Below, in pieces: positions 2,242 through 38,206 of a DNA stretch of 47,635 nt (position 1 is the stretch's first letter; every line of letters starts with the position of its first letter). Source of the stretch: an uncultured Acetobacteraceae bacterium (GTDB taxonomy: Bacteria; Pseudomonadota; Alphaproteobacteria; Acetobacterales; Acetobacteraceae); assembly GCA_964246135.1 (NCBI GenBank), contig CAXTPV010000002.1, forward strand, positions 1-47,635, written 5' to 3'. The notes beneath the pieces were generated by a model. It had not been told where the DNA came from and did no database searches. It saw nothing but the letters and a program-made list of their open reading frames with translations. The position numbers and the translations under genes were made by a program.

Positions 2242-2275
2242 TTACCTTCCTTACCGCTTAAGTCCCGCCCCAGCG

Positions 2276-3066: not shown

Positions 3067-3151
3067 GGGCTTGCTCCGTCCTGCCTCGGCCGCCAACGCG
3101 GCGGCCGGCCCACGGTTGTCAGGTGGGGCGTCCGGCGTGGATCATGCGCCG

Positions 3152-4235: not shown

Positions 4236-4286
4236 GGATTTCAAAGGCTTCGCCTTTGATAGGGTCAAGGGGCAAAGCCCCTTGCC
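4236..4286 (+). repeat. 51-nt double-hairpin intergenic repeat, copy 3
   Basis: GGATTTCAAAGGCTTCGCCTTTGATAGGGTCAAGGGGCAAAGCCCCTTGCC lies in the 306-nt gap between convergent pdxY and the AGE-family gene. It is preceded by two more GC hairpins (GAGGGCtctGCCCTC, CTGGGGCCatcGGCCCCAG). Confidence 0.7.
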
Positions 4287-4318
4287 TTGGTTAGGCTTCG
4301 AACAGCGCCTTCGGCGCT

Positions 4319-5470: not shown

Positions 5471-5565
5471 TGTCTTGTTCCATCCGGGCCGGCGGGCGCA
5501 AGCTGTCTCTCCGGCCAGAAGGCCGCCCGCGTGCTCAGGAGGCCCGCGTGCTCAGGAGGTGCCTG

Positions 5566-7061: not shown

Positions 7062-7065
7062 CTGG

Positions 7066-7518: not shown

Positions 7519-7626
7519 GTCCGTCCTCCTTGGCATGGCGCGGTTCACCGCAACAGGATTAAAGGTCGGAGGCGAGCCTCGTCTCAACCGGGGGCAAGCT
7601 CGCGCCGCATCGGAGGAGCGATCGCC

Positions 7627-8115: not shown

Positions 8116-9115
8116 TCACCACCTTGCCGACATGCGAGCCGCCGGCGAGATGCTCGTAGGCCGCGCGCGCGTCGGCGAACGGGAACACGCGATCGATCAC
8201 CGGACGCAGGCCCGTACGCGCGATCGCCCGGTTCATCTCCTCGAACATCTCGGTCGAGCCGACCAGGACGCCTTCGAGCCTGAGTCGACGCCGCAGGATC
8301 ATCAACGGATCGATCGTCTCGCCAGGGCCGCTGAGCAGCCCGATCACCGCGATGCGGCCGCCCGGCGCCGCCGCGCGCATCGATCGCGTGAACGTCCCGG
8401 GTCCGCCCACCTCGATCACCAGATCGGCGCCGGCGCCGTCCGACAGCGACCGTACCTGATCCTGCCACTCCGGGTGCTGGCGGTAGTTGATCGCCGCCTC
8501 GGCGCCGAGTGCCCGCACCCTGGCCAGCTTCTCGTCCGATGACGAGGTCGCGAACACCCGCGCGCCCAGCAGCCGCGCGAACTGGATCGCGAACATCGAG
8601 ACCCCGCCGGTGCCCTGGGTCAGCACGATCTCGCCCGGAACGACACGCCCGAACCGCACCAGCGCGTGCCAGGCGGTCAGCGCCGCGCAGGGCAGCGTCG
8701 CCGCCTCGTCAAACGAGAGGTGGTCCGGGACGCGCACCGCCCCCGCCTCCGAGACCGCGACGAGCTCGGCGAGCATGCCATCGATCGCGCCGCCTCGCGC
8801 CGAGCGCTCGAGCGCCGCGGTGAGCGCGCCGCCCTGCCAGCGATCGAAGAAGCCCGCCGCGACCCGGTCGCCGACCGCGAACCGGCTCACCGCCTCGCCG
8901 ATCGCGACCACCTCGCCAGCGCCGTCCGACAGCGGCACCAGCCCCTCGGCGATGCCGCCGCCATACTGCCCGCGCACCACCATCAGGTCGCGGTAGTTGA
9001 GCGAGCAGGCGCGCACCCGCACCAGGATCTGCCCGCGTCCCGGCTTCGGCTCGGGCGCGTCCGCCAGCGACAGTCCGTCGATGGCGCCGAACCGGTCGAT
9101 GCGATAGGTCTTCAT
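8102..9115 (-). CDS. NAD(P)H-dependent MDR-family (zinc-type alcohol dehydrogenase / quinone oxidoreductase-like) oxidoreductase
   Basis: 337 aa. It has a GroES-like N-terminus (ILVRVRACSLNYRDLMVVRG), a Rossmann motif LTQGTGGVSMFAIQFARLLGARV, and ends GSHVGKVVISVP. Confidence 0.85.
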   Translation of the reverse strand: MKTYRIDRFGAIDGLSLADAPEPKPGRGQILVRVRACSLNYRDLMVVRGQYGGGIAEGLVPLSDGAGEVVAIGEAVSRFAVGDRVAAGFFDRWQGGALTAALERSARGGAIDGMLAELVAVSEAGAVRVPDHLSFDEAATLPCAALTAWHALVRFGRVVPGEIVLTQGTGGVSMFAIQFARLLGARVFATSSSDEKLARVRALGAEAAINYRQHPEWQDQVRSLSDGAGADLVIEVGGPGTFTRSMRAAAPGGRIAVIGLLSGPGETIDPLMILRRRLRLEGVLVGSTEMFEEMNRAIARTGLRPVIDRVFPFADARAAYEHLAGGSHVGKVVISVP

Positions 9116-9184
9116 GACGTTGCTCCGTGGCGATCCTGCGCCAAGCCCGGATCAGGCGGATCGGTTGCCGGAGTTCGCGCATCC

Positions 9185-9577
9185 ATGTCTCGAGGCCGCC
9201 CCCGCCCCAGCCCGGGCAAGCGACAACGTCACCTGCTCGGGGCCGTCCTGCTCGGCGCGACGCTGTCCGCCTGCGCGACCTTGCCACGCGGCGAGCCGAT
9301 CCCGGTCAACACCAGCACGCTGCTCGACGACTATGTGCTGGCGCACGGCTTCGCCGCCGGCCGGGTGCTGTCGGAGAACGTCGACCGCGCGACCATCGCC
9401 GAGATCATCCATCTCGACCATGACGCCCTGCTCGCGATCAGCCTGAGCGTCGCCAACCCGGGATCGGCCGACGCGAAAACGCGGGCGACCGCGGCGCTCG
9501 CGCGCCTGACCGGCTTCGTCTCGGAGCAGGGTGAAGGCGGCACGGTGGGACCGGGGCAAAGGCAGGGGGCACGGTGA
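9185..9577 (+). CDS. Hypothetical lipoprotein
   Basis: MSRGRPRPSPGKRQRHLLGAVLLGATLSACATLP carries a lipobox (LSAC). I recognise no family. It occupies the C-terminal part of ORF 8666..9577. Confidence 0.5.
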   Translation: MSRGRPRPSPGKRQRHLLGAVLLGATLSACATLPRGEPIPVNTSTLLDDYVLAHGFAAGRVLSENVDRATIAEIIHLDHDALLAISLSVANPGSADAKTRATAALARLTGFVSEQGEGGTVGPGQRQGAR

Positions 9578-9605
9578 GGCGCGGGCACGATCGCGCGCCG
9601 ATCAC

Positions 9606-10517
9606 TCAGGCCGCCCAGCCACCATCGGGTCCGGACCGCAGCGCCTCGATCAGCGCGGTGAGCGCCGGCGGCGTCTGCCGGCGGCTGGTGTAATAGAGAT
9701 AGTAGCCAGGCGCGGTCCAGGACCAGTCCGCCAGCACCCGCACCAGCCGTCCGGCCTCGACGTGACCCGCGGCTTGGTCTTCCAGGAGCTGTGCCACGCC
9801 CTGTCCGGCCAACGCCGCTTCCAGGATCAGCTCGCCGTCGTTGACGATGAGCGAGCCGTCGACCTTGACCTGCAGTGACCGTCCGGCGTGCTCGAACTCC
9901 CAAGGGTAGAGGCTGCCGGCGGTGGCCAGCCGATAATTGATACAGCGGTGGCGAGCAAGGTCGTGCGGTGTCACCGGGATCGGATGCGTCGCGAAATACG
10001 CGGGCGAGGCGACGACCGCTGATCGTATCGCCGGGCCGACCCGCACCGCGATCATGTCGCGCGCCACCTTCTCGCCAAACCGCAGCCCCGCATCGTAGCG
10101 ACCCTCGACGATGTCGGTCAGGCCGTCATCGACGGTGATCTCCATCCTGATGTCCGGATAGGCCGCCATGAACGCGGGAAGCACTGGCAACAACACCGAG
10201 AACGCCCCATGCCGCGGCGCGGTGATGCGCAACTTACCCGCCGGACTGTCGCGCAACGTCGCCAACACGGCAAGCGAGGTGCCGATCTCGGCCAGCGCCG
10301 GTCGCAGGCTGCGCAGCAACCGGTCGCCGGCCTCGGTCACGGCGACGCTCCTGGTGGTGCGCGCCAGCAGCCGCACCCCGACCCGGCTCTCCAGCGCCTT
10401 GATCGCGTGGCTCAGCGCGGAGGCCGACATCCCGAGCTTGGCGGCGGCACGGGTGAAGCTCGCCTCGTCGGCGATCGTCACGAAGGCCGCCAACTCGTTC
10501 AGCTCGTTCCGTCTCAT
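9606..10517 (-). CDS. LysR-family transcriptional regulator
   Basis: MRRNELNELAAFVTIADEASFTRAAAKLGMSASALSHAIKALESRVGVRLLARTTRSV is a LysR HTH, followed by a substrate-binding domain. It is divergent from the aldo/keto reductase. The start was taken from ORF-track indexing (residue 94 of 9606..10796). Confidence 0.9.
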   Translation of the reverse strand: MRRNELNELAAFVTIADEASFTRAAAKLGMSASALSHAIKALESRVGVRLLARTTRSVAVTEAGDRLLRSLRPALAEIGTSLAVLATLRDSPAGKLRITAPRHGAFSVLLPVLPAFMAAYPDIRMEITVDDGLTDIVEGRYDAGLRFGEKVARDMIAVRVGPAIRSAVVASPAYFATHPIPVTPHDLARHRCINYRLATAGSLYPWEFEHAGRSLQVKVDGSLIVNDGELILEAALAGQGVAQLLEDQAAGHVEAGRLVRVLADWSWTAPGYYLYYTSRRQTPPALTALIEALRSGPDGGWAA

Positions 10518-16092: not shown

Positions 16093-19125
<3,033 letters not shown>

Positions 19126-19277
19126 CACCATCCGCGCGAAGCAGGTGGCGTGTCAATCGCCACCCACTCGGTGTCAGGCATCCGGCGTAGGCACTTCCTT
19201 CACATTCTGCGTGTACTTCCACAGGCGTCGCCGCGCGGGCGACCTCCGACCACGTGCGCAGTGATGGGATCAACTGC

Positions 19278-21764
19278 ATGTTAGATGATCTCGCCCGCTG
19301 GTTGTTTGACCCCTCCGGTCTGATCCCGCACGGCTCTTGCCTGCTCTGGCATCCGGGCCTGATCTGGACCAACGCGCTGTCTAATCTGACCATCGGCGTC
19401 GCCTACCTCACCATCCCCGTGGCGTTGCTGGTGTTTGCGCGTTTGCGCACGGACCTCGCTGTCAAACCGCTCTTTGGGCTGTTCGCCGCCTTCATCCTGC
19501 TTTGCGGCGCTGGTCACTGGCTCGACCTGCTCACACTTTGGGTGCCCGTCTACGGCGTCGACGGGGTCGTCAAGGCGGCGACGGCGATCGTGTCCCTGAT
19601 CACCGCGGCGGCGATCTGGCCGGCCATCCGGCGTGCGCGATCGCTTCCATCATCAGCCCAGTTCCAGGCCGCCAACGCGGCACTGCGCGAGACCAATCAG
19701 CGCCTCCAGCTCGCCAGCCAGATCGCGGGCGTCGGGCATTGGCGCGTCACGCTGCCGAGCCTGTCCCTCTGGTGGTCCGACGAGGTGTTCCAGATCCACG
19801 GCATCGATCCGGCGTGCGGCGCACCCAGCGTGGACGCTGCCATCGCCGCCTATCATCCGGATGATCGGGCCACGATCGCCCTTCACGTCAAGCGGGCCAT
19901 CGAGGAGGATGTGGACTACGACGTGGGCGCGAGGCTGATCCGGCCTGATGGCGAGCTGCGCCACGTTCAGGCGCGCGGGCTGCAGGAGCGCGGACCCGAT
20001 GGCAGGGTGATCACGTTGTTTGGAACTTTCATCGACCTGACCGAGCAGAAACGCAACGAGGAGGCGCTTGAGCGGCTCTACGCACTGAGCATCCGCGCGC
20101 GCGAGGACGCCGAGGCATCCAGCATCAGCTCACAGCGCCTGGCGCGACATCTCGAAGCCGCTCGCGATCGTGCTGAGCAAGGTAACAAGGCCAAGTCGCG
20201 ATTCCTCGCGAACATGAGCCACGAGCTTCGGACGCCGCTGAACGGCATCATCGGCTACACCCAGCTTTTGCAGCTGGAGGGTGGTCTAAACGCGACCCAG
20301 TCGGCGCGCCTAGAGGCGATGATGGGGGCGGGCAACCATCTTCTCCAAATGATCAACCGTGTTCTCGATCTCTCCGGCATCGAGGCTGGGCGGGTCGAAC
20401 TCGATCAGGTCGATACCGATCTCAGCGCGGTTGCGGAAGCCTGCCTCGATCTCGTTCGACCGACGGCTGACATCAAGCGCCTGGAACTCAGGCTCACGAT
20501 CGAGCGCGATGTTCCGGGTCGGATCAGGACCGATCCCGTGCGGCTCCGACAGATGCTGTTGAACCTGCTGGGCAACGCGGTGAAGTTCACGGCACGCGGA
20601 CATGTCGACCTGCGTCTCGCGAGCCGTGATGATGGTAGGACGCTTCTTCTCGAGGTCGCCGATACCGGCCCCGGTATACCCGTGGAGCGGCGACACCAAC
20701 TATTCCAGGATTTCGAGCGTCTCGAAGCGAGCGCTACCAGCGGCATTGAGGGCGCGGGGCTCGGGCTGGCCATTTCCGCGCGGCTCGCGGCGATGATGGG
20801 CGGCCGGCTTGGATTTAGAGAAAACGACGGTGGTGGCAGCGTATTTTTCCTGGATCTGCCAGAGAAGGATCGAAAGTCCTGGGACGCATCCCCGCCGACC
20901 GCCATCGCCGGTCCGACCGTGCCAGCCGCGCGGGCGCCAGCGAAACCTGTTCGGGCGCTGGTGGTCGATGACGTTGCGATGAACCGCGACGTCGCCCGTG
21001 CCTTCCTTGAAGCGGCGGGTCACGAGGTGCTCTGCGCGAACGATGGGGAAGCGGCGATCGCGGCGGCGGCAGCCATGGATTTTGACGTCGTGCTGATGGA
21101 CATCCGCATGCCGGGCATGGACGGAATAGCGGCGACGAGCCGGATCCGTCGCCTGGACGGTCCCCGCGGACGCGTGCCGATCATCGCCGTGACCGCTCAA
21201 ACCTTCGCCGAGCAGATCGACGAATGTTGCAGGGCTGGCATGGACGGCCATTTGGCCAAGCCGATCAGCCCAGCCATCCTGCTGGAGACCATCGCCTGCG
21301 TCATCGAGGCCCGGGAGTTCGACTGCGGCAATAACCCGCCTGTCATTGCATCAGGACACGGCACTGCCCCCGGCGACTGCGGCTTGGCTGGCCACAACCA
21401 GCCTGAGCGCGGCGTCTTCGATCGAAGCGTCTTCGATCGGACGACGTCGTTCCTCGCTCCTGCCATCGTGACCTCGCACATCCAGGGGATGTCGGATCAG
21501 GTCGGCGCGATCATCCGCCGGTTGCGTGTCAGGGGCCACGATGCAAGCGGGGCTGCCGAAATCGCCGAAGCCGCGCATGTGCTGGCGGGTAGTGCCGGCA
21601 TGTTCGGTTTCAGGCGCCTGGCGGCCGCCGCGCGGCGGCTTGAATGTGCCGCCCGCGCGAGCGCCATCGACGATGGCGATGCCATCGCGTCGGAGCTTCT
21701 CGCCGGCGCGGCGGCCGCTCGGGAGGCGGTGTCCCGCCGTCCGTGGGTGCCAGAACATGCCTGA
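19278..21764 (+). CDS. Hybrid sensor histidine kinase/response regulator: 3-TM N-terminal sensor (ethylene-binding-domain-like), PAS, HisKA, HATPase_c, REC, Hpt
   Basis: H-box [19 protein letters not shown]; N/G boxes [26 protein letters not shown]; [17 protein letters not shown]...[12 protein letters not shown]...HLAKP; Hpt [12 protein letters not shown]. The ORF-track start at 19254 is a GTG; the first ATG is at 19278. Confidence 0.9.
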
Positions 21765-26823: not shown

Positions 26824-27501
26824 TCACGCACCCACGTTCTGCCGCAACACTTGGACCTCGGTGAGGCACGCGATGTCGGTCGCGCCCCGGCGATCAAGCC
26901 GACTGACAAACTCGTTGATCTCTTGGTCAGGTTCTCCGCTCCGAAACACGAGGTCTCGTGAGGTCAGGCGCGTCCGGTCGAGCAGGAACACGGGCGCGAG
27001 CGCAATGCCGGGAAGCGATGTGCCAGGGTCTCTCGGCAAGGGCAGGATCACGTCGCCCCACCAGCACGCCGCCTGTGCCGCCGCGCCACCCAGCGCGATC
27101 GCCGCCTGGGTTGCCTGCAACCGCGACAGCAGTTTGGCATACGTCCCGGCCAGCACGCGGTCATTGCTGCCAACGCAGGTCACGTAGCGGCCTTGCGCGA
27201 CCTCCAGGCCCCAGTTCAACAGCGGCACGCGCAGGTCGAAGGGCTCCGGATAGTCCCAGTTGTGCAGCGTCAGGCTGGCGCCCTCGTCCAGCAGCAACAT
27301 GTCCTTGGTCGCATGCCGCACGGCCTGCATGTCGGTGATCGAGAATCGCTGCAGCATCGCATGCAGCCGCAACCCGCCATGGGACTGGCTCCCCGTTGCC
27401 GAGGGGGCCTGGCCAAGCAGCGAGAACAGGCATTGCGCAAAGCAGGGAAGCTCGGCGGTGTCGTAAAGCGTGACGATGACATCAATTCCCTCTGGCGTCA
27501 T
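26824..27501 (-). CDS. Glycosyltransferase-like protein (degenerate GT-A/GT2 fold), last gene of the glycan cluster
   Basis: MTPEGIDVIVTLYDTAELPCFAQCLFSLLGQ... resembles a GT2 N-terminus. The usual DxD position reads VGSNDRV. The ATG shares one base with the stop of the upstream gene (TGATG). It is the C-terminal part of ORF 26824..27735. Confidence 0.6.
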   Translation of the reverse strand: MTPEGIDVIVTLYDTAELPCFAQCLFSLLGQAPSATGSQSHGGLRLHAMLQRFSITDMQAVRHATKDMLLLDEGASLTLHNWDYPEPFDLRVPLLNWGLEVAQGRYVTCVGSNDRVLAGTYAKLLSRLQATQAAIALGGAAAQAACWWGDVILPLPRDPGTSLPGIALAPVFLLDRTRLTSRDLVFRSGEPDQEINEFVSRLDRRGATDIACLTEVQVLRQNVGA

Positions 27502-29282
27502 CAAGCAATGCCCGCCTGCAAGCGCAGGCAGTCGAGAACGTCGGTGCGGCGCCAGGCTTCCCTTACGGCGGGCAGTTCCGGTGCGTCCGGCGCGCCGACC
27601 CCACGCAGCAGCGCGGTGAAGTGGGCCACGGCGGGCGCGTCCCCCCACTTCGAAGCCAGCAGCAGCCCAGCCGCCGGCTTCAGCTCCGGCGCCGGCGCGG
27701 CGCCGACCCCTGCCGAGAACAAAGCACGTGGGCATTGCAGCACGGACAAGCCGAGCGCGCGCGCGCGCCAGGACAGATCGATGTCGGCCAGCCAGGCGTC
27801 GAGGCGCTCATCAAAGCCGCCCGTCGCCTTGAACAGGGTGCGCGGGATCGCGACCCCCGGACCGCCTGCCCACTCGATGCTGAAATCCTCAAGACCGACC
27901 CGCCTCGGTGCCGTGTTCGGAACGGTTTCGACCTGCATCAGCGCCCGACCGCCATGCGCGTCTGACATGCGCAGCAGCGCCGCGCCGCTGCCGGGATGCA
28001 GCAGTCCCGGCGCGTCGAGCAACAGCACCAGGTCCGCGCCAGCATCAAAGCCGGCGCGCAACGCAAGGTTGCGGTCGGAGGTGTCCGACGCGGGACTGCC
28101 GCCGCGAGCTGGCATCCTGATGCGTTCGCCATCTGCGCCGGGCGGCAGGCCCAGCAACGCCATCTCGACACTTCGGGCCAGGGGACCTGATCCCCCCGCC
28201 TCGCCGCGCAACACGATGGCAAGGCGCCTCCCAGGCGCGATCGCGTCGCCCAAAGGCTGTCGCCACAGGACGTGCAGAACACGGCGTGGTCGTGGTGGCG
28301 GCGACGTAATGAGCGGGTTGTCTTCGACCGCGCGAATGACGCCGCGAGATTCGGACAGCCTGACCAGGCGGCGCGACAGGAAGCGATCCAGCGCCTCGCT
28401 GCTCGGCACCGCCGTCACGTGGCCCTGCTCGTGCAATTCGCCACGCGCGGTGAGCTTCATCCAGTCGTAGCCGGCCTGCTCGCAGATGTGGAAATACAGC
28501 CGCTCGATGCAGTGCGCCAGCGTGCCGTCGGTCTGGCCGCGCTCTTCGGGGAAGTCGCGCGCGGCAAGGCCGAGATCGAGCAACGGCCGGAGCGCTGCGC
28601 TGCGCGCCCAGAACATCGAGCCGGAGGGAAAGTCGAGCGGCGCCCGGGGCGGCAGCGCAAAACCCATCCGCCCCGCCAATGCCTCGGCCTCTCGATGGTT
28701 CTGGCCCCAGCGGATCCAGGGGCGAAGCTCGTCGATATGCTGCGGCGCGAGCATTCCAAGCCGCGGCATGCGTGCGAACACCTCGAAAACCCCGCGCACG
28801 GTCTCTGGAGAACCGAGCAAAGTGTCCAACAGGTAGCCGCGCCATCCGACCAGGCGGGAATCGTGGGGCGACTGCTTGGTATGCAGGTGCAGCACGTATT
28901 CGTAACGATCGTGCACGGAGGCGAAACCGACCACCTTGGGCGCGACATCGCGCCCGCGATTTGGCACCACCCGGGTCTCGACCATACCCGGCGCCCAGTT
29001 CGCAAAGCAGGCCAGCACGGCCACCTGCTTTGCCTCGGTGTCCGTGCTGACAAAGAGGTCGGCGCGAAAAGGTATGTTGTCGAGATAGGCGCGAAACTCG
29101 TGCAGCAGCTCGACGTGGAAGGCATGCAGAACGACGGCGACGGAGGGTACCCGTGCCGGTGCCGAATAGCCAAGTGGCAGTTCGAGGCTGAACTCCTGCT
29201 CCAGCGGATAGAGGGACTCCCGCCGCACGATGTGCTCGCCTCGACGCGCTCTGACAATGGGCGTTCCCGACAGGCCAGCCAT
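27501..29282 (-). CDS. Fusion protein: rhamnan-synthesis-F (RgpF)-like domain plus C-terminal GT2-like domain
   Basis: The RgpF-like half reads VAVVLHAFHVELLHEFRAYLDNIPFRADLFVSTDTE...NRGRDVAPKVVGF...YEYVLHLHTKQSPH...FPSGSMFWARSAAL...GTLAHCIERL. The C-terminal half reads LLLDAPGLLHPG...GGFDERLDAWLADIDLSWRA. The ATG at 29282 overlaps the upstream stop by 1 nt. Confidence 0.8.
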   Translation of the reverse strand: MAGLSGTPIVRARRGEHIVRRESLYPLEQEFSLELPLGYSAPARVPSVAVVLHAFHVELLHEFRAYLDNIPFRADLFVSTDTEAKQVAVLACFANWAPGMVETRVVPNRGRDVAPKVVGFASVHDRYEYVLHLHTKQSPHDSRLVGWRGYLLDTLLGSPETVRGVFEVFARMPRLGMLAPQHIDELRPWIRWGQNHREAEALAGRMGFALPPRAPLDFPSGSMFWARSAALRPLLDLGLAARDFPEERGQTDGTLAHCIERLYFHICEQAGYDWMKLTARGELHEQGHVTAVPSSEALDRFLSRRLVRLSESRGVIRAVEDNPLITSPPPRPRRVLHVLWRQPLGDAIAPGRRLAIVLRGEAGGSGPLARSVEMALLGLPPGADGERIRMPARGGSPASDTSDRNLALRAGFDAGADLVLLLDAPGLLHPGSGAALLRMSDAHGGRALMQVETVPNTAPRRVGLEDFSIEWAGGPGVAIPRTLFKATGGFDERLDAWLADIDLSWRARALGLSVLQCPRALFSAGVGAAPAPELKPAAGLLLASKWGDAPAVAHFTALLRGVGAPDAPELPAVREAWRRTDVLDCLRLQAGIA

Positions 29283-30085
29283 CACTGGCGGCTCACTCCG
29301 AGAAAGCTCCGCACCTGCCGCCATCCGACCGTGCGGCGCTGCGGGTAGGCGACCACGACATCGTGGTGATCGTCCCAGGCACGGGGATGGTAGGCCGCCA
29401 TGCGCAACCCGCAGGCCGTCAGGGTCGCGCCAAGCCACGCCTGGTCGATCAGCGAGATGCCGTAATGCTCGTTACTGAGCGCGACGCCGTAGTCGGGACC
29501 GCCACCATAATCGCGATAGCCGAAACCCGTGCGTTCGTAATCATCGATCACGCCTGCCGGGTCGCCGTCGGCGAGGCCGTACCCGATCTCGCGCAGTCGC
29601 GGGATGATGCCGGGGCCATGCGACGATGCCACCAGCACGGAACGTCGGGTCATGTGTCGCGCCATCGCCGCCAGGAACAGCTTCACCTGCCGCGCCGGCA
29701 GGTGGGTGATCAATGAGCCGACCCAGATCAGATCATAGGTTTCCCCCAGCCTCAAGGTGGTGAAATCGCGCACCGACAACGCCGGCCGCACGCCAAGCCG
29801 GGCGGCGCAGAACGCGATGCCATCGGCGTCGAGGTCGCTCGCGGTGATGGTGGCGCCTGGAAACCGTGCCCGCAGCACCCGCGTCACGCGTCCGAACCCG
29901 CTCGGAAGATCAAGAATGCTGCGTGGTAAGGCGCCGTCCAGCGCCTGCTCGATCACGCGCAACGCCGATAGGCCCACCGAGGCATAGTGAAAATGGTCAT
30001 CGTCCCTGAACATCTTGTCGGCATCGTCAACCGATCGGTCCATCGTGGGCAAGGGAAAGCCCACCGGCAGGATAAGTTGATGCAT
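29282..30085 (-). CDS. Class I SAM-dependent methyltransferase
   Basis: ILDLPSGFGRVTRVLRARFPGATITASDLDADGIAFC...YDLIWVGSLITHL matches motifs I-III. The ATG at 30085 has GAGGG upstream. The ORF-track start at 30130 is a TTG that overlaps the upstream gene. Confidence 0.8.
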   Translation of the reverse strand: MHQLILPVGFPLPTMDRSVDDADKMFRDDDHFHYASVGLSALRVIEQALDGALPRSILDLPSGFGRVTRVLRARFPGATITASDLDADGIAFCAARLGVRPALSVRDFTTLRLGETYDLIWVGSLITHLPARQVKLFLAAMARHMTRRSVLVASSHGPGIIPRLREIGYGLADGDPAGVIDDYERTGFGYRDYGGGPDYGVALSNEHYGISLIDQAWLGATLTACGLRMAAYHPRAWDDHHDVVVAYPQRRTVGWRQVRSFLGVSRQ

Positions 30086-30098
30086 GCGTCTGACGCCC

Positions 30099-31604
30099 TC
30101 AGCCGGCGCGCCGTGACGCTGGCACGGCAATCGCTGGTGCCGGCTCGACCGTCATCACAGTCTTCCCAAAGAACAGCATCACCGAGAGGTAGCGCCAGTC
30201 GAGGCCACCTAGCTCGGCATCAGAACGACGCCGATAAATACCAGGGTCGAACTTCCAAGCCCCATTGGCGAGCATCGGGACGGGGGCGTTCCGCCAGACC
30301 ATTGCCGGACCCGGCGAACGTCCCGAAGCCCATAGCGCATCGCGGGTGGCGATGGTGGAGGCAATCAGCGCTCGGTCATGCAGGAGGTCGGGCAACCGCC
30401 AGCAAAACACTATCAGCAACGGCACCGTAAGCAGCAAAGCGCGGGTCCGCTGTGCCATCATGCTCGGCCAGGCCTGGGCGAAACTGTAGACAGCGAGCAC
30501 GCCCAGGCAGGTGCGAAAAGTCTCGTGACGCTCGCAGCAATCGTCGCCGAACTGCCGGTAGGCGAGCACGATCGATCCGTAGCTGGCGAGCAGCAGGGCC
30601 GTACCACGCAGCAGCGCCTCGAGGACGGTCGGCCCCAGGCGCGTCTCCGTCATGCCAGGTCGGAAGCCAAGGAACAGCAGCAGCTTGACCGCGAGACCGG
30701 CGGCAACGTTCCAGCCACCGCCAAGCCTGATTGCTGCCAATTCGCGCAGATCATCCGGTCCTGACACAACGAGACTCGCGCCGAGCCTGCCGATAGTCGG
30801 ACTGCCATGCCGGAGCACATCCACGTTGCTGCCGACCCGATGCAGTGCCGTCACCATCGCGACGAAGGCGACGGAGGCGGCAGCGCTTGCCCACACAAAC
30901 CAGCGTAGGCGCACTTGGCCGCGCGCGATACCGTGCGCAACCAGAAGCAGCCCCGCGTCGATCGCGACCACCATCGCGCCCAGCTCCGCGCACCATGCCG
31001 CAACGACCAGCACACCACCGAGCGCCCAGCTCCGCGATGGATGGTCGCGTTTCATCAGGCAGGCGCTGCCGAGCGCGGTGATCCCGAGCAAGTACGCGGC
31101 GGCGCCAGCTGGCCAGTAGAACATCTCTCCCGGTTTGGCGAGCAGGAGGAACGCCGCAACCAGAGAGGCCGCGATCAGCGCCGGCTCGCGACGAGTGCTC
31201 CTTGCAGCGAAATAGAGGCCGAGCAGGAGAACCGACCAGATGGCGGCAAGAAACGGCAGCGACAGCGGTCGTCCAAGCAGGTTGACAGCGGTGCCATAAC
31301 CAAAAAGCACGAGCTCGGACACCGGACGCGGACTCCAGCCGAGGATCCTGTCCGCGGTCGCATGCCAGCCGGCGACGCGTTGCTCGTGGAATTGCAGGAA
31401 CTCGTCCGGATGCCATTTTCCGAGCGGCAGCAGCGACGCGTAACAGGCGATCATCAGCAACAGCGCCGTGGTCGCACCAGGTATGGCGAGGTATCGGGCG
31501 ACTTGGCGCGTGGGCGTTCGCTTGGCAATGCCGGCTCCGGCCCGGACACTCTCCGCGCTCAATCGGCGCGATCCTCGGGATCGATCGGAGACAGCTTCAT
31601 CCAT
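30099..31604 (-). CDS. Polytopic membrane protein of the glycan cluster (possible GT-C-type transferase or polymerase)
   Basis: About 11-12 hydrophobic segments. The first loop reads LPLGKWHPDEFLQFHEQ (acidic DE motif after TM1). The hydrophilic C-terminal ~90 aa follow. I recognise no family. An alternative start is the TTG at 31562, which overlaps the upstream stop as TTGA. Confidence 0.65.
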   Translation of the reverse strand: MDEAVSDRSRGSRRLSAESVRAGAGIAKRTPTRQVARYLAIPGATTALLLMIACYASLLPLGKWHPDEFLQFHEQRVAGWHATADRILGWSPRPVSELVLFGYGTAVNLLGRPLSLPFLAAIWSVLLLGLYFAARSTRREPALIAASLVAAFLLLAKPGEMFYWPAGAAAYLLGITALGSACLMKRDHPSRSWALGGVLVVAAWCAELGAMVVAIDAGLLLVAHGIARGQVRLRWFVWASAAASVAFVAMVTALHRVGSNVDVLRHGSPTIGRLGASLVVSGPDDLRELAAIRLGGGWNVAAGLAVKLLLFLGFRPGMTETRLGPTVLEALLRGTALLLASYGSIVLAYRQFGDDCCERHETFRTCLGVLAVYSFAQAWPSMMAQRTRALLLTVPLLIVFCWRLPDLLHDRALIASTIATRDALWASGRSPGPAMVWRNAPVPMLANGAWKFDPGIYRRRSDAELGGLDWRYLSVMLFFGKTVMTVEPAPAIAVPASRRAG

Positions 31605-32350
31605 GGATGACGCATGGTCATTTCGACGAACACCGCGTCGTAGGATCGCGCCGTTTCGGTTCGCAGCATGGACGCGCGATGCACCCGGTAGCGGCACAGC
31701 ATCTCCGGAACGAACGCCGCGACGTAGCCCTGCTCGATGAACTTGCACCAGAAATCGTAATCTTCCCAGCCACCCTCGACGTGGCTGTAGCCGCCGACGT
31801 CCCGCCAGGCCCGTCGCGATATCAGTGCCATCGCGTCGATGTAGTTGCCATGGCGCAGCCATCGCGGCTGCCAGACATCGGCGAGGCCGACACCGTGCTT
31901 GGCGCCAAACAACTCATGCTGGGTGTAGGCGGCGGCGGCGGCGCTGGTGGCGATCGCGTGATGCAGCCTGCCGATCGCGCGTGGATAAAGCGCGTTGTCG
32001 GCGTCCAGCACGAACACGTTGGCGCCTTGAGCGTGCAGGAAGCCGGTGTTGCGGGCCTGCGCCAGTCCCTGGTTGCGTCGGTGCCGCAGCAGCTTCACGC
32101 GCGAGAAACGCTCCGAATGCGCCTGCATCCAGTCCCGCGCGACGGCGACTGACGCGTCCTTGGCCGACGCATCGTCAACCACCACGAGTTCGAGCGCGGC
32201 GTGACGCTGCGCCGCGATGGAGTCGAGACATTCAGGAAGGAACTCGGCATAGTTGTACAGGCTGACCGTGACCGTCACGAGGTCGGATGGTGAGGCATCG
32301 TCGCGTGCAGCCTCGAACACGGTCTCAGTCGCGGGCGCAATGTTCGGCAT
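31559..32350 (-). CDS. Glycosyltransferase family 2
   Basis: VTVSLYNYAEFLPECLDSIAAQRHAALELVVVDDASAKD...NQGLAQARNTGF...VFVLDADNALYP is a canonical GT2 (DxD = DAD). There are no TM segments. Confidence 0.85.
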   Translation of the reverse strand: MPNIAPATETVFEAARDDASPSDLVTVTVSLYNYAEFLPECLDSIAAQRHAALELVVVDDASAKDASVAVARDWMQAHSERFSRVKLLRHRRNQGLAQARNTGFLHAQGANVFVLDADNALYPRAIGRLHHAIATSAAAAAYTQHELFGAKHGVGLADVWQPRWLRHGNYIDAMALISRRAWRDVGGYSHVEGGWEDYDFWCKFIEQGYVAAFVPEMLCRYRVHRASMLRTETARSYDAVFVEMTMRHPWMKLSPIDPEDRAD

Positions 32351-32354
32351 TGCC

Positions 32355-35114
32355 TCAGCCGCGCTCCCGGGCGCGATGCCGCGACAGGAACCGCAGCATA
32401 CCAGCGACCGTGTTTCGGGTCTCGAAGGTGGTCGAGATCAAGGCGTTGACGTTGGCGCGCACGCGTTCCGCCTCACGGCCGCCCTCCTCGGTGGTGAGCA
32501 GCCATTCGAGTAGGTCCGGAATGTGTCGTGCGCTCTCCTGCAGGTAGTGTTCGTTGGCAACGAAACTCGGATGCGGCAGGCAGGGGTCTGACACGATCAG
32601 GCTGCCCGAGCACATGCCGATCCGAACCATGCGGTGCCACTCGAAATAGCCGAACTCCTCGCGATGGATGTTCAGCGTGATCTTGCTATGACCCGAAACG
32701 TGCCCGGCGAGCCGGGTCAGCGCGCCGTCCTCGCCTTCACTCCGGATCGGGCCGCGGCCCGGTCGGCGGTTGTAGTTGAAGGTCTCGTAGTCGGCGAAGA
32801 AGGCGGCGTTGCGAGCAAAAAAGCGATCGCGGCGCGCGCTCGACGTGCCAAAGAAGCTGATATCGAGGGGCCTCGCGGCAAACGGCAGGCCGGGATCGAT
32901 GTCACGCTGGGCCGCCGCTGGAAGGACGCCATACAGAGGATGCCGGCGATCCCGCTCGGTGAGCTTGTGCGGCCGCAGACGGGCGCCGGGCAACACGTGC
33001 AGCGCCGCCATGTCAAGGCGCTCGAACAGGTCAGCGGTCTGCGAGCATATATCGAACATGCCCCGCGACATCAGGATGAACGGCAATGCCAGCTGAAACC
33101 AGGTGGTCTGGACCTGCTCGGTGCCGAACATGAAGGCGTCCGACAGCACGTCGTCGCGCACCCAGTCGGAGCCGCGTCCTAGCACGAAGAACTCGTGCGG
33201 TGCCACGAACACGCATACCGGCGGCCGCGTCTCGATCGCGCTGGTCTCGTCCAGCAACTCGACACGAACACCGGCGCTGCGAAGATCGGCTGCCAGGTCC
33301 TCGGCAAGGTCGTCCATGAAGACGTTGCCATGCGTGCTGACATAGATGCCGACATGGCTGACATCTTCGACCAGCGCAGGCAGGTCTTGATCGTCATGCC
33401 GCGAAGGTGGCAGCGCGCGAACGGCATGGTCGAACAGCATGAAGCCGCTCATCAGGCGTGCAAGGTCCTCTGGGTCGACTTTGCCGCGCCCTTCCAGCGC
33501 GCCTGACTGGATGAAGTGCTCGTAGGGGTCGACACCAGCGGCGGCAACGTCTGGGTTGCGGCGCAGGTAGTCCTCGACATCGAACACCTCAAAGCGCCGC
33601 AACCGGGTCACTGCGGCGGCAAGCGTCCACCAGTTCACCTCGCCGACGTAGCGTCCGAAACACTGGATCTGCGGCTTTTCCGGCGGCGGTTCGGCCAGCA
33701 TCTCTTCCGATTGTGACACCTCGGTCTGTTGCGGCGGCTCCACGTAGTCGGGCTCGGGCGGCGGAAGGCCTCTGGTGGACCGTGACAGCAGGCGGCCGAC
33801 GCGTTGAGCACCCACGCCGACCCGCACGAGGCGCGAGCGCCGGGCGGCATCGACGTCGGCGAGCCGGGCGTCGATGTCGATGTCGCGCTGTTGCAGCGCC
33901 GCTTCCCGGGCATCGAGCGCGAGCGCTTGCTGTTCAAGCACGTCACGCGTCGCGGCAAGTTCGGCACGTGCGGCCTCGCGTTCCGCCGCGGCGTCAGCGG
34001 CTCTCGCGTCCCGCCGCAGCATCTCGGCAGCCTGCCAGTCGGCCAGCTTTGTCTCGGCATGGAGTCGTGCGGCGGCTTGGGCCTGGAGCTGTTCGCGTAG
34101 CGGCCGGATGTCTCGCTCGGCCGCCTCGGCACCGAGGCGGCGTTCTCGCTCGGCGACGAAGGCCGCGTTGGCGGCGGCGAGCCAGTCCCCGGTTTCGCCA
34201 AGCTGGCGCGACAGGTCGGCAATGTCCTGCTCAGGCTGATAGGTCTCGGTGCGGGTCCAGGGGAAAACGTTGCGCGCCTCCGGGGTTGACGCAGCAGCGC
34301 GCGCTGTCGCCATGAGCGAGGGCGGCACCACGTCGCGCCCCAGGTTTGCCGTCACCAGCCGCCGAAAATCGGCCGCCTCTTCCGCGGCCGCGTCCTGCCG
34401 AAAGCGTCTCGGCAGACCAAGCAGGTTGGCCAGCAGGTTTTCCGGGTGGATCAGCGACAAGCCGCGTCCATCAGCCCGGCCTGGCTGCGGCAGGGCGTCG
34501 GCGGCAGCGCTGCCGTCGCGCGCGAACACCAAGGTGTTCTGCGCGTACCACCAATCGACATCCGCATTCGCCCAAAGGCTTCCGCGCAAGAAGTCAAAGC
34601 AGGAATAACCTTGGCCACGAAACAGGATGGACCAATATTCCGGCCACTGCTCGTTGACGTGGTGGGTGCCATACTGGAACGGCACCGCGGCGGAGAACAG
34701 CACGGCGTCGCCGAGCGACGCCAACTCCGCAATGAGTGACGGCGCGCGTCCATGCGGCAGATGCTCGGCGACTTCCATGCAGACCACGAGGTCGAAGCTT
34801 GCCCGCGCCCTCGTTCGCAGAATGTCGGGCAGCGCCTGCGTCGCGAGGTCAGAAGCAATGAAGCTGTGGGCGTCAACCAGCAGCGCGTCGCGATCGACGT
34901 AGTCGCCATCAATGCCGATCGCCTCCTCGACCCCGAGATCGAGCCCCGCTCGCATCCAGCTGCCGACGCCACAGCCGACGTCCAGCAGGCGCCGCGGTCG
35001 CAGCAGCGGCACCAGCCTGCCCAGGATGATGCGAGCCGAGATCAGGCTCCGCTCCGCCTGGCCCTCAAAGAAATCCTTGTCGTAGATCGCGGCCGGTGTG
35101 TGTCGGGCCGCCAC
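32355..35114 (-). CDS. Three-part protein: N-terminal class I SAM methyltransferase, ~130-aa Ala/Arg/Glu-rich coiled coil, C-terminal glycosyltransferase-like (CgeB/GT1-like) domain
   Basis: MTase: LLDVGCGVGSWM...FDLVVCMEVAEHLP...HVNEQWPEYW. Coil: REQLQAQAAARLHAETKLADWQAAEMLRRDARAADAAAEREAARAELAATRDVLEQQALALDAREAALQQRDIDIDARL. It also has a YLRRNPDVAAAGVDPYEHFIQSGALEGR motif. The C-terminus reads FGTSSARRDRFF...ITLNIHREEFGYFEWHRMV. The GTG at 35114 lies 2 nt after the upstream stop. The ATG at 35225 would overlap the upstream gene by 110 nt. Confidence 0.75.
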   Translation of the reverse strand: MAARHTPAAIYDKDFFEGQAERSLISARIILGRLVPLLRPRRLLDVGCGVGSWMRAGLDLGVEEAIGIDGDYVDRDALLVDAHSFIASDLATQALPDILRTRARASFDLVVCMEVAEHLPHGRAPSLIAELASLGDAVLFSAAVPFQYGTHHVNEQWPEYWSILFRGQGYSCFDFLRGSLWANADVDWWYAQNTLVFARDGSAAADALPQPGRADGRGLSLIHPENLLANLLGLPRRFRQDAAAEEAADFRRLVTANLGRDVVPPSLMATARAAASTPEARNVFPWTRTETYQPEQDIADLSRQLGETGDWLAAANAAFVAERERRLGAEAAERDIRPLREQLQAQAAARLHAETKLADWQAAEMLRRDARAADAAAEREAARAELAATRDVLEQQALALDAREAALQQRDIDIDARLADVDAARRSRLVRVGVGAQRVGRLLSRSTRGLPPPEPDYVEPPQQTEVSQSEEMLAEPPPEKPQIQCFGRYVGEVNWWTLAAAVTRLRRFEVFDVEDYLRRNPDVAAAGVDPYEHFIQSGALEGRGKVDPEDLARLMSGFMLFDHAVRALPPSRHDDQDLPALVEDVSHVGIYVSTHGNVFMDDLAEDLAADLRSAGVRVELLDETSAIETRPPVCVFVAPHEFFVLGRGSDWVRDDVLSDAFMFGTEQVQTTWFQLALPFILMSRGMFDICSQTADLFERLDMAALHVLPGARLRPHKLTERDRRHPLYGVLPAAAQRDIDPGLPFAARPLDISFFGTSSARRDRFFARNAAFFADYETFNYNRRPGRGPIRSEGEDGALTRLAGHVSGHSKITLNIHREEFGYFEWHRMVRIGMCSGSLIVSDPCLPHPSFVANEHYLQESARHIPDLLEWLLTTEEGGREAERVRANVNALISTTFETRNTVAGMLRFLSRHRARERG

Positions 35115-35115
35115 G

Positions 35116-37896
35116 TCAGGGCTCGCCCAGGAAGGCGCGAATGCGCCGTATGCTCTCGGCCGGGAAGGCGTGCTCCCAGTCGGTCGGCCAGTCCACCTGC
35201 GCGCCGGCAAGTCGGGCGTCGACATCGTCGACGCGCGCCATCGCCTCCACCAGGCCGTCGCAGATCGCGTCGACCGTTGGCGAGACCCCGATCAGGTTGC
35301 TCGAGATCTCGCGCAGCCGTTCGGTGGTCTTGTTGGCGAACACGTTGGTGACCGTCCACATCCCGGCCGACGCCATCTCGATCGGGACTAGGCTCGGATG
35401 CGGCGTCAGCATCAGCGAAAGGCCGACATCGAAACTCGGCATCAGCCGGATGTACTCCTCAAGGCTTGTCTTTGGGACCAGCTCGAGCGGCACGCCCTCG
35501 GCGAGCTCGAGCATGTTGCCGCCGATCGAGCCAATACCGTGAAAAGACCACTCGGCGAGGTTCACGCGTGGGTCGCGTACAACCCGTGCGAGCGCCATCA
35601 TGCCGAGTTCGAACAGGTTGCGGGCGGCGTGCTCCTCGGGTCTGGCGTAGAACAGCAGCCGCCTTTTGCTGCGCATCAACTGGCCGCGAGATGGATGAAA
35701 CTTCTGGATCGCGTTGCTGAACACCGCCGCGTCGGCATCGCCGCCAGCCCGCGCGAAAACACCGATGCCTTGATCGCGAAAGAAGTCGCGCAGCAACTCG
35801 GTCGAAAACAGCGACATCTGGGGCAGCGTGTAGGCCTGCTGGAACAAGGCGCTGATCGAGTTCATCGCCATGAAGTAAGGCTCGTACTCCTGCGCCATGA
35901 ACAGGAAAGGCCCGCCGCGAAGCTGTTGCAGCGTATGATGGGCGATGTGGGCGGCCCAGCAGTTGGTCGCGACGAACTGGTCTTCCGGGTTGACCTCCAC
36001 CGGGACCGTCCGGTCCGCTCGCGCGATCACCTCGACCTCATCGAACAGCGTGGTGATACCAGGATACTTCCCGATCTTGGTTCGCCACTCCCCCATGTTC
36101 CATTCAGTAGGCTCATGGAGAATGATACGCGTATGATAGCCCTCGCGCTTCAGTCGAAGTGCCAGGCTGAACATCCCGATGTAGCCGCCAAAGACATAGT
36201 TGAAATCGATCGTCGCGAGCAGCAGGTTCACCCGCTTGGGGTGCTCATCTGACACGTCAAGCGTAAGCGGCAGGATGTTGCGATGAATCCACTTGGTGGT
36301 GCCATACTCCAATGCTGGAATGCTGCGCCGCGGCGCCTCCATGCTGGCAGGCAGCGGCGTGACGGCGTCAGACGGCGTAAGCGTCAGTTTGCCGGCGGCA
36401 ACGACGGCGTTGAGCAGGCGCGCTCCGGGGTTCTTGACTTGCAACCGGACAAGGTCGCGCTGTTTGCGTCGCAGCGCGTAGTTACGCAGACGCGTTCCGG
36501 CGATCGACCAGAGCAACATTCCTTCGAGGTTGAGCGTCGGCCGGCCGGTACGCACCGCCGCGATCTTTTGGTCAAGTGCGGCTCGAAACGAGGTCTCGAA
36601 TCGTGAGAAGCGCTGCAGGACAACTTTCCGTTCGGCCGGCAGTTGCGGGTTCCGCAGCAGCAACGTGCGCGCCAGCATCACCTTCTGCAACACGAACTTG
36701 TAGTCGTCGAGTGACTGCTTCAGCAGCATCGTGGCCGTCGCCGCCATTCGGCGGCGGTTCGGCGCGGCGCGCAGGACTTGCCGCAGCGCTGACAGCATAC
36801 CGGGCCATTTGTTGTAGTTGTGACCGATCACGCCGCCCGTGTGCTGAACATAGTCGTAGAGAGGGGCATCCACGTATCCGATGCCGCCACGCAGCAACGC
36901 GACCAAGCCAATCCAGTGATCATGGAAGGCAGGACCGACCTGTTTCGGGAACGGCAGCAAATCGGGCAGCAGCGATGCACGGATCATGCTGGCAGCACCG
37001 GTAATGGTGTTGGCAACCATCAGCGTCGACAGGTCCGTGTAGTTGTTACGCCGTCTGGCCCAGAACGTCTCCGACCGGACTCCACCATTCGCGTCGACCA
37101 CGCGCGCGTCGCTGTAGACGAGCTGGATGCGGTCGGTAAAACCGTCGAGCAATGCCCGCAATTTGTCCGGGCGCCAGACGTCATCCTGGTCACAAAGGGC
37201 GATGTAGTCAGCATCGGTCGGCGCGCGCCGCAACGCCTGTTCGAAATTGTCGTAGAAGTGCAGGCGGGCGCGGTTCTGGAAGAACATGAAGCGTCGGTCG
37301 TGCTTGACCATCATGCGCACGCGGTCGTAATGCTCGTTGCTGGTGTCGTCGTCGGAGATGATGCAGACCCAGTTCGCGTGCGTCTGCGCCTGGATCGAGG
37401 CAATCTGTGCCTGGAACAGGTCGGCGGGTGGATCAAACATTGCCATGCAGATCGCGATACGCGGTCCGTCCGCCGGCCACGTCACCGCGGTCGGTTGCAC
37501 GCCGTCCCCGGTCAGCAAGCGGATCGTGCCAAGCAGGCGCTCGATCACCTTGCCACGCGTCAGCGTGGCTCGGAGCCACAAAGCGACATCGCGATCGCGA
37601 CCGGGCGATGCGAACGGCACCAGCCCTTCAAAGCCACTCAGCAGGCTGTTGCCGCTGCTGTCTTGTCCGGGACACTTGTCGACGAACACATCGAGGCGAC
37701 CCCAGGAGTGGTTAGCGATCGACGTCGCGACGCCATCAACGACGATCTCCAGACCGGCGAGCTGGTCGTCGGGCGAATAGCACCACCCGCGCACCGGCAG
37801 CATCGCCCCCTTGCCCACAAGCATCGTGTCGGGCAGCGCCTCATCGAGACCGTGGGCAAACGGCGCCTGGGTGATGCCGGGTGAGAAGTCGTCCAT
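35116..37896 (-). CDS. Bifunctional glycosyltransferase: unknown N-terminal domain, GT2 (rhamnosyltransferase-like) domain, WsaF-like GT-B C-terminal domain
   Basis: GT2: RIAICMAMFDPPADLFQAQIASIQAQTHANWVCIISDDDT...YIALCDQDDVWRPDKL. The C-terminal ~370 aa read VNLLLATIDFNYVFGGYIGMFSLALRLKREGY...FMAQEYEPYF...LLFYARPEEHAARNLFELG...SLVPIEMASAG, which resembles WsaF-type rhamnosyltransferases. This is the first gene of the cluster. Confidence 0.8.
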   Translation of the reverse strand: MDDFSPGITQAPFAHGLDEALPDTMLVGKGAMLPVRGWCYSPDDQLAGLEIVVDGVATSIANHSWGRLDVFVDKCPGQDSSGNSLLSGFEGLVPFASPGRDRDVALWLRATLTRGKVIERLLGTIRLLTGDGVQPTAVTWPADGPRIAICMAMFDPPADLFQAQIASIQAQTHANWVCIISDDDTSNEHYDRVRMMVKHDRRFMFFQNRARLHFYDNFEQALRRAPTDADYIALCDQDDVWRPDKLRALLDGFTDRIQLVYSDARVVDANGGVRSETFWARRRNNYTDLSTLMVANTITGAASMIRASLLPDLLPFPKQVGPAFHDHWIGLVALLRGGIGYVDAPLYDYVQHTGGVIGHNYNKWPGMLSALRQVLRAAPNRRRMAATATMLLKQSLDDYKFVLQKVMLARTLLLRNPQLPAERKVVLQRFSRFETSFRAALDQKIAAVRTGRPTLNLEGMLLWSIAGTRLRNYALRRKQRDLVRLQVKNPGARLLNAVVAAGKLTLTPSDAVTPLPASMEAPRRSIPALEYGTTKWIHRNILPLTLDVSDEHPKRVNLLLATIDFNYVFGGYIGMFSLALRLKREGYHTRIILHEPTEWNMGEWRTKIGKYPGITTLFDEVEVIARADRTVPVEVNPEDQFVATNCWAAHIAHHTLQQLRGGPFLFMAQEYEPYFMAMNSISALFQQAYTLPQMSLFSTELLRDFFRDQGIGVFARAGGDADAAVFSNAIQKFHPSRGQLMRSKRRLLFYARPEEHAARNLFELGMMALARVVRDPRVNLAEWSFHGIGSIGGNMLELAEGVPLELVPKTSLEEYIRLMPSFDVGLSLMLTPHPSLVPIEMASAGMWTVTNVFANKTTERLREISSNLIGVSPTVDAICDGLVEAMARVDDVDARLAGAQVDWPTDWEHAFPAESIRRIRAFLGEP

Positions 37897-38206
37897 CAGT
37901 TCCTGCCGCGCCGATGCGGGGCCTGGATCGGCCCGGCCATACCGATGCCTTGCCCAAAGCGAGTCCGAGCCGGGAGGGATAGCGGCGGTGAGGGATCGTT
38001 CATGCCAATGCCAGAGCTACGACGTGCGCGGCACAGTTGCCATACCGGGCCGCCGGGCGGAAGCGCCCCGGTTGCTTCCTCGTCCCGCCTGGCCATTCCG
38101 ACCCAACGCTCGCGCGCGTCAGAAATCGGCCTTCCAACGCTTCCGGCACCGGCCTATCCATCGTCGGCGAGCCCCCGCCGCGCAAGGACAGCTCCGGACC
38201 ATCAGC

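Follow-up and report, generated by a model that had tools for sequence, protein, structure and literature searches.

Can a single polypeptide both extend a bacterial polysaccharide and set the point at which its growth ends? This question is raised by a gene on the minus strand of a 47,635-nucleotide stretch of DNA from an uncultured Acetobacteraceae bacterium (contig CAXTPV010000002.1; the whole stretch is hereafter called the window). Its product fuses an S-adenosylmethionine (SAM)-dependent methyltransferase, a long helical spacer and a glycosyltransferase (GT)-like domain, and the initial annotation, made from the sequence alone, had proposed it as a candidate chain terminator and molecular ruler. 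Our analysis puts at about even the chance that the protein is a soluble, probably oligomeric, bifunctional terminator/ruler enzyme of lipid-linked polysaccharide assembly. This is the best explanation that we infer from the domains, the operon and the comparison with known systems, by analogy with which the protein would work like WbbB or an ORF6-type protein. Its product would most likely be a methylated polymer of rhamnan type (6-deoxyhexose), assembled at the cytoplasmic side of the inner membrane.

The open reading frame (ORF) originally reported, 32355..35225 on the minus strand (956 aa), is a genuine coding frame (GC content of 0.79 at third and 0.49 at second codon positions), and about 80 full-length homologues of the fusion protein exist at 40–70% identity. 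The part of that assignment that did not hold is the start codon, which probably lies 111 nt further downstream. A public gene call from the same contig (P0001) has 919 aa and is 100% identical to the window protein, and homologues begin 5–20 residues ahead of a conserved YDxxFFE motif; the start was therefore placed at GTG 35114, so that the gene spans 32355..35114 (minus strand) and its product probably comprises 919 aa, not 956. This GTG lies one base past the TGA of the upstream gene (35118-35116), while a start at the ATG at 35225, which gives the maximal ORF, produces a 110-nt overlap with that gene. Residue numbers below refer to the 919-aa product, and adding 37 gives the numbering of the 956-aa ORF. 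The three-part anatomy first described was recovered in full, with each part close to where it had been placed, and about 80 orthologues from Acetobacteraceae and their relatives retain both end domains.

Sequence profiles, conserved motifs and structure prediction confirm the assignment of the N-terminal domain (residues 13-230; 34425..35078, minus strand) as a class I SAM-dependent methyltransferase with a predicted Rossmann-like fold and a glycine-rich SAM-binding motif. Pfam Methyltransf_23 matched residues 70-210 of the 956-aa ORF (E 2.7e-9; 37.4 bits against a cut-off of 27), and AlphaFold2 (AF2) modelled residues 13-230 with a predicted local distance difference test score (pLDDT) above 90. 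A Foldseek search with the full-length model retrieved class I O-methyltransferases. The SAM motif DVGCGVG and the motif EVAEHL are invariant among the family, in which the DxGCGxG pattern is kept, and the position proposed for this domain (34505-35093) was about right. The module continues into a conserved helical extension (residues 231-293; 34236..34424, minus strand), delineated by alignment, AF2 and a shared motif; it contains AF2 helices at 239-258, 268-275 and 286-289 and closes with an FPWTR...PE motif that is also present in a Thiomonas relative, P0086. The whole methyltransferase module, comprising the approximately 300 N-terminal residues with the FPxTR motif, recurs at 45–51% identity in proteins of 830-1200 aa; there, a helical spacer comes next, then a segment of basic or amphipathic character, and then GT4 or GT2 domains. 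Among Protein Data Bank (PDB) chains, the family profile weakly matched the WbdD methyltransferase domain (4azw, E 1.2e-3). No kinase domain was matched by the fusion protein in Pfam, NCBIfam or the PDB. A kinase hidden between the methyltransferase and the spacer, as in ORF6 of Klebsiella O7, was considered and discarded, as AF2 places only about 60 conserved, mostly helical residues there.

The central segment (residues 294-426; 33837..34235, minus strand) is a long helical spacer and a candidate coiled coil. AF2 models approximately 130 helical residues as two helices of 39 and 89 aa (294-332 and 338-426; pLDDT 70–88), separated by a low-confidence break at 333-337 that is centred on a proline. 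The uninterrupted stretch of about 130 residues described originally (33830-34230) thus corresponds well to these helices, apart from the break, which divides it. Disordered low-complexity sequence was rejected as an account of this segment, since the AF2 helices are confident and only residues 427-480 are disordered. To assess heptad character, hydrophobic enrichment at positions a and d was measured in 28-residue windows and compared with composition-matched shuffles. In this protein, 17% of the windows exceeded the 95th percentile of the shuffles, against 5% expected (3-fold), while the mean over 39 orthologues was 30% (6-fold); the heptad-like character noted earlier is accordingly present, but only modest in this protein. 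The family profile weakly matched the coiled coils of SMC3, Spc25, myosin and MacA in PDB chains over exactly this segment.

Comparison of orthologues provides a further indication of how the spacer is built. It is the sole length-variable part of the protein, ranging from 61 to 235 aa (for example, 74 aa in P0064 and 235 aa in P0024) between anchors that are otherwise 45–85% identical. Homologue spacers contain internal tandem duplications with periods of 7, 14, 21, 28, 35, 42 and 56 residues, and seven of the ten proteins with strong repeats have periods that are multiples of the heptad, compared with about one in seven by chance. Such heptad-multiple duplications were seen in the central regions of P0005, P0008, P0013, P0040, P0092, P0094 and P0203; the window protein's own spacer has no strong internal repeat. 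The spacer thus appears to grow in whole heptads. Taken with the heptad test and the profile matches, these findings speak for a spacer of coiled-coil type whose length changes heptad by heptad, with moderate confidence for this particular protein.

The spacer is followed by a predicted disordered linker (residues 427-480; 33675..33836, minus strand; pLDDT <50), in which charge and hydrophobic-moment analysis revealed an Arg-rich basic patch with a net charge of +5 to +6 over 18 aa, succeeded by a Pro/Glu-rich segment. Homologues carry longer amphipathic helices at the position of the basic patch, and this region may lie near the membrane. Between the linker and the GT-like domain, AF2 predicts a β-hairpin and a small helical subdomain (residues 481-586; 33357..33674, minus strand; pLDDT ~90). 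The motif YLRRNPDVAAAGVDPYEHFIQSGALEGR, reported initially as preceding the C-terminal domain, does so: it occurs once in the window, at 33486..33569 (minus strand), inside this subdomain. The underlying NPDV motif (Y..xNPDV..aG.dP..Hf...G..EGR) corresponds to a repeat unit of about 35 aa and matched no Pfam model. One to about eight such units stand between the coiled coil and the GT in other putative terminators, and giant proteins of 1,300-2,600 aa, which have methyltransferase, GT2 and GT4 domains as well, contain 10-20 units. Proteins with NPDV units include P0155, P0209, P0222, P0263, P0101 and P0203.

The C-terminal domain (residues 587-913; 32376..33356, minus strand) is a two-lobed α/β domain in the AF2 model, and structure prediction with Foldseek confirms it as a predicted GT-B fold, in line with the GT-like domain of about 400 aa in the initial annotation. 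A separate model of the last 427 residues, built with 45 sequences, had a pLDDT of 86.9 and a predicted template modelling score (pTM) of 0.86. Foldseek against the PDB returned only GT-B structures as top matches, with a best E of 3.6e-6, TM-scores of 0.35–0.65 and about 10% identity. These include EXTL3, GT10 fucosyltransferases, BshA and other GT4 enzymes, SenB, SdgB and the mannosyltransferase of methylmannose polysaccharide; the full-length model gave the same GT-B matches besides the O-methyltransferases. At the sequence level, the domain had no Pfam or NCBIfam match in this protein or in nine diverse homologues, and searches of PDB chains with the full protein and the family profile yielded only generic methyltransferase and weak coiled-coil matches, leaving the C-terminal domain unmatched.

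This domain belongs to a large family. A phmmer search of 1.84 billion representatives with the C-terminal module gave 7,365 matches at E <= 1e-3 and 2,557 at E <= 1e-10, which corresponds to at least 2,500 clusters at 50% identity under the latter threshold. Many of these relatives are stand-alone proteins of 400-460 aa, nearly all named 'hypothetical protein'. PF13524 (Glyco_trans_1_2) gave a weak match in 20 of 45 stand-alone homologues (best E 3.8e-4), and this protein did not reach its threshold. The conserved motifs of the domain are PHEFF, TEQxQTxWF, RPxDxxFFG, LNIH..YFEWHR and VVSDPC, and many polar residues are invariant among orthologues and in the wider family. Because PHEFF, RPxD..FFG and FEWHR stay nearly invariant across the stand-alone homologues as well, sequence conservation points to a family of active enzymes. 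In one further member, the 1199-aa metagenomic protein P0203, a sulfotransferase and a coiled coil precede a basic patch, which leads into about eight NPDV-type repeats and a GT-B domain of the same family. It is possibly a sulfate-capping counterpart of the window protein. Since P0203 repeats the layout with a sulfotransferase head, the design in which a putative cap-adding module is joined through a helical spacer and a basic patch to one or more NPDV units and a GT is a recurrent one.

The same arrangement in outline is known from characterized systems. In WbbB of Klebsiella O12, a GT99 terminator precedes a coiled coil and GT102 and GT103 modules (PMC11231755), and in ORF6 of Klebsiella O7, a methyltransferase-kinase(-carbohydrate-binding module, CBM) region is followed by a coiled coil and two GT2 domains (Kelly et al. 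2024, PMC11231755). Orthologues of ORF6 are reported from alphaproteobacteria, with homologous gene clusters in Gluconacetobacter, a member of the Acetobacteraceae (PMC11231755). A methyltransferase-only form of WbdD is found in E. coli O8 (PMC3482155). In Geobacillus stearothermophilus, WsaE is a capping 2-O-methyltransferase fused to two rhamnosyltransferase domains, with WsaF as its partner (PMC2943079). Two claims of the initial annotation fall with these reports: the domain order had been said to match neither paradigm, and WbbB has the order terminator, coiled coil, GT; a ruler with terminating methylation at one end and a transferase at the other had been presented as a new variant, and such a layout, with terminator and GTs at opposite ends, is already published for WbbB and ORF6.

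In ORF6 of Klebsiella O7, one polypeptide carries a terminator with a methyltransferase at its N-terminus, then a coiled coil and, at its C-terminus, GT modules, an order that the methyltransferase, candidate coiled coil and GT-B domain of the window protein parallel; its polymer contains rhamnose, a likeness to the rhamnan-type polymer proposed here. Unlike the window protein, it has additional kinase and CBM-like domains, a methyl-phosphate cap and two C-terminal GT2 (GT-A) domains, whereas the window protein, compared with it by published description, has no room for a kinase and a single unclassified GT-B domain. WbbB (Klebsiella O12 / Raoultella terrigena) likewise unites an N-terminal terminator, a coiled-coil ruler and C-terminal polymerase GTs in a single protein. 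Its terminator, however, is a β-Kdo (3-deoxy-D-manno-oct-2-ulosonic acid) glycosyltransferase (GT99) rather than a methyltransferase, its polymerase modules are GT102 and GT103, and WbbB chains were not among the 50 matches listed in either Foldseek search. WbdD (E. coli O9a / O8; Klebsiella O3 / O5) has, like the window protein, an N-terminal class I methyltransferase; its long C-terminal coiled coil, which acts as a ruler, and its membrane-proximal region would correspond to the candidate coiled coil and the basic patch here. In contrast, WbdD has no GT and recruits the separate polymerase WbdA, and the O9a form has a eukaryotic-type kinase that is absent here. Because of the missing kinase, and because its methyltransferase similarity to WbdD is no better than that to generic class I enzymes, the window protein is, on sequence grounds, not a member of the WbdD family. 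WsaE also fuses an N-terminal O-methyltransferase to GT domains, and a WsaF-like module is encoded directly upstream in the window; the WsaE / WsaF product is a polyrhamnan capped by 2-O-methylation and exported by the ATP-binding cassette (ABC) transporter Wzm/Wzt. WsaE differs in having two rhamnosyltransferase domains and no reported coiled-coil spacer; the window protein has one GT-B domain and a spacer with some 130 predicted helical residues. Across the class of coiled-coil terminators (WbdD, WbbB, ORF6-O7 and ORF7-O4), a cap-adding-type module stands at the distal end, where the window protein has a predicted methyltransferase with intact motifs. The polymerase GTs of the class are fused or recruited to the membrane-proximal end, to which the predicted C-terminal GT-B fold and the adjacent GT genes correspond.

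On this basis, the following mechanism can be proposed. The GT-B domain, positioned at the membrane, would extend the chain together with the co-transcribed GT2-WsaF, GT2 and RgpF transferases. The helical spacer, whose lower end would be anchored close to the membrane by the Arg-rich patch, could measure as much as about 19 nm if straight and collinear; it would keep the methyltransferase off the membrane, so that this domain could be reached only by chains grown long enough. O-methylation of the non-reducing terminal sugar would then block further extension, and the finished chain would be exported via a Wzm/Wzt ABC-2 transporter encoded elsewhere in the genome.

The genetic context is that of a polysaccharide locus. 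The fusion gene comes second in a compact operon on the minus strand (26824..37896). At several of its junctions, TGATG junctions among them, the stop codon of one gene overlaps or adjoins the start codon of the next. The upstream, translationally coupled gene (35116..37896, minus strand) encodes a 926-aa fusion of a GT2 domain with a WsaF-like rhamnosyltransferase-type GT-B (Pfam Glycos_transf_2, WsaF_N and WsaF_C), which is syntenic in the orthologous loci L001, L002, L083 and L085. In L085, the WsaF gene lacks the GT2 half present in other loci. Downstream lie a 263-aa GT2 glycosyltransferase that forms part of the conserved core by Pfam and synteny (31559..32350, minus strand), a second, stand-alone SAM methyltransferase (29282..30130, minus strand; Pfam Methyltransf_25/12/11) with orthologues in L001, L006 and L083, and an RgpF-family rhamnan-synthesis protein (27501..29282, minus strand; Pfam RgpF E 2.6e-48, with tblastn synteny). 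The operon is syntenic in at least six other genomes. The core order of (GT2-)WsaF, methyltransferase/coiled-coil/GT-B fusion, GT2, an optional methyltransferase and RgpF is conserved in Falsiroseomonas, Acidisoma and several metagenome-assembled genomes of Acetobacteraceae or alphaproteobacteria.

Exporter genes accompany some of these loci. In L003, whose fusion protein is a 65% identical orthologue, ABC2_membrane and ABC_tran genes (Wzm/Wzt; 17825..19556) directly follow the core. The related methyltransferase modules of Thiomonas (L086) and Cupriavidus oxalaticus (L087) are encoded immediately beside a Wzm/Wzt ABC-2 exporter (5427..7018 and 8157..9703, respectively), and the Cupriavidus locus adds rmlABCD, a WsaF-like GT and a WecA-like initiating enzyme. 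A soluble protein of 680-711 aa with a C-terminal Glyco_tranf_2_3 domain is encoded beside the core in L001 (17199..19241), L002 (4677..6812) and L003 (15727..17841), and is absent from the window. Its 704-711-aa forms were considered as a membrane synthase-exporter, an idea that was dropped as they have no predicted transmembrane (TM) segment.

Several observations weigh against the terminator/ruler reading, with respect to the spacer, the cap and the export route. The heptad signal of this protein is good at both ends of the spacer and weak in its Ala/Arg/Asp-rich middle, a Pro-centred break parts the two helices, and these may be either collinear or folded back on each other. Because of the weak mid-helix heptads and the break, the spacer may instead be a hairpin or a non-coiled helix. 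Regarding the cap, either of the two methyltransferases encoded in the operon could act on chain ends or modify in-chain sugars. As for export, neither a Pfam scan of 31 ORFs in the window (most of the large ORFs with high GC at third codon positions) nor tblastn with the L086 and L087 Wzm/Wzt found these genes there, and they are absent within 10 kb in five of the six other orthologous loci examined. A C-terminal cap-recognizing CBM on Wzt is typical of terminator-coupled export, although not universal. The Wzt proteins of L003 (at most 294 aa), L086 (260 aa) and L087 (248 aa) are too short to carry such a CBM, and only an ABC_tran domain was detected in them; here the related loci depart from the class of coiled-coil terminators. 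The window also contains no rml or other nucleotide-sugar genes, so that the identity of the sugar is a guess from WsaF and RgpF homology.

Some of these points would equally suit a decorating enzyme on a scaffold, which methylates internal or non-terminal positions while the helix only oligomerizes or scaffolds a multi-GT complex and chain length is set otherwise. The stand-alone methyltransferase conserved in the operon suggests that methylation may be a bulk modification, and both the absence of a cap-binding CBM from Wzt in related loci and the modest heptad signal of this protein are consistent with such a role. We nevertheless regard it as unlikely, if deserving of serious attention, because the layout of modifying enzyme, helical spacer, basic patch and GT, which recurs with methyltransferase or sulfotransferase heads, matches that of published terminators, and because the spacer is free in length, often in heptad multiples, with both ends kept, whereas a pure oligomerization domain would be expected to remain constant in length. 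Another possibility is that the protein serves a different pathway, whose product could be an exopolysaccharide, a glycan attached to protein or a methylated polysaccharide that stays inside the cell, and that the fusion merely couples consecutive GT and methyltransferase reactions. The window lacks not only Wzm/Wzt and nucleotide-sugar genes but also genes for an initiating phosphoglycosyl transferase and a ligase, most of the orthologous loci are small, with 4-6 genes between unrelated metabolic genes, and one Foldseek match (7qsg) is a mycobacterial enzyme, the mannosyltransferase for the cytoplasmic methylmannose polysaccharide. Set against this are the Wzm/Wzt genes that adjoin the core in L003 and the classical Wzm/Wzt loci, with rml and WecA-like genes, that house the closest out-of-family relatives of the methyltransferase module. 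Furthermore, the prototypes of WsaF and RgpF both come from ABC-transporter-dependent rhamnan pathways, that of RgpF from streptococcal rhamnan synthesis. A different pathway thus appears rather improbable. Finally, the GT-B domain could lack catalytic activity and serve for docking or acceptor binding, recruiting the real polymerase (GT2-WsaF or RgpF) much as the C-terminal region of WbdD recruits WbdA. No curated GT family matches it, and its Foldseek TM-scores reach only 0.35–0.65 at about 10% identity, as such a role would allow. However, its active-site-like polar and charged residues (PHEFF, RPxD, R270 and FEWHR) are strongly conserved among orthologues and 45 distant stand-alone homologues, and the frequency of the family as stand-alone proteins of 400-460 aa suggests an autonomous enzyme, which makes an inactive module very improbable.

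The principle of a terminator, a coiled coil and a GT in one protein is itself established. What is new is the combination of a methyl-only head without a kinase, a coiled-coil-like spacer and a single GT-B domain of an unclassified family, which we did not find described. If the terminator/ruler reading is true, the ruler principle of Klebsiella and E. coli reaches environmental Acetobacteraceae with a simpler, methyl-only cap, and a widespread GT-B family without a curated model, together with the recurrent NPDV repeat, gains its first functional context. Should the protein instead act as a scaffold or methylate sugars within the chain, it would be one more ordinary polysaccharide enzyme with several domains. 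A broader view, which we advance tentatively and consider possible rather than probable, is that the NPDV subdomain and GT-B domain are the founding example of a very large unclassified GT family, wired through a heptad-expandable spacer and a basic patch to methyltransferase or sulfotransferase cap-adding heads. Under that view, the Acetobacteraceae orthologues, with spacers of 61-235 aa set between end domains that are nearly the same, would form a natural ruler series in which glycan modal length scales with spacer length, and export would not be coupled to cap recognition, since the Wzt proteins lack a CBM. Such a series would make the ruler model testable by comparison, without engineered mutants. 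The large unclassified GT-B / NPDV family and this natural series are the most interesting aspects of the locus.

The remaining genes of the operon are less readily assigned. A polytopic membrane protein with at least seven TM segments and an uncertain start codon (30099..31604, minus strand) is inserted into the core in the window, interrupting the otherwise conserved order of GT2, (methyltransferase) and RgpF; a homologue was found only in L004, where it is placed elsewhere. It has no Pfam family, apart from a weak DUF6056 match on a longer ORF, and could be a GT-C-type or polymer-modifying membrane enzyme. The last gene (26824..27501, minus strand) encodes a 225-aa conserved protein that is coupled to RgpF via TGATG and supported by tblastn synteny, with no Pfam match. 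This protein is kept in all orthologous loci, in some of which it is fused to the RgpF C-terminus in forms of 738-740 aa. The GC content is 61–68% in the glycan operon (about 29000..38000) compared with 70–73% in the flanks; polysaccharide loci that spread by horizontal exchange typically form such lower-GC islands. In Acidisoma sp. 7E03 (L085), a Mu-like prophage with MuA and MuB homologues lies directly beside the cluster, whose WsaF gene is the one without a GT2 half (1..7543 and 8295..9941). Elsewhere in the window, the plus strand encodes a hybrid histidine kinase (19254..21764) in which an ethylene-receptor-like ETR1_N N-terminus is followed by PAS, HisKA, HATPase, REC and Hpt domains.

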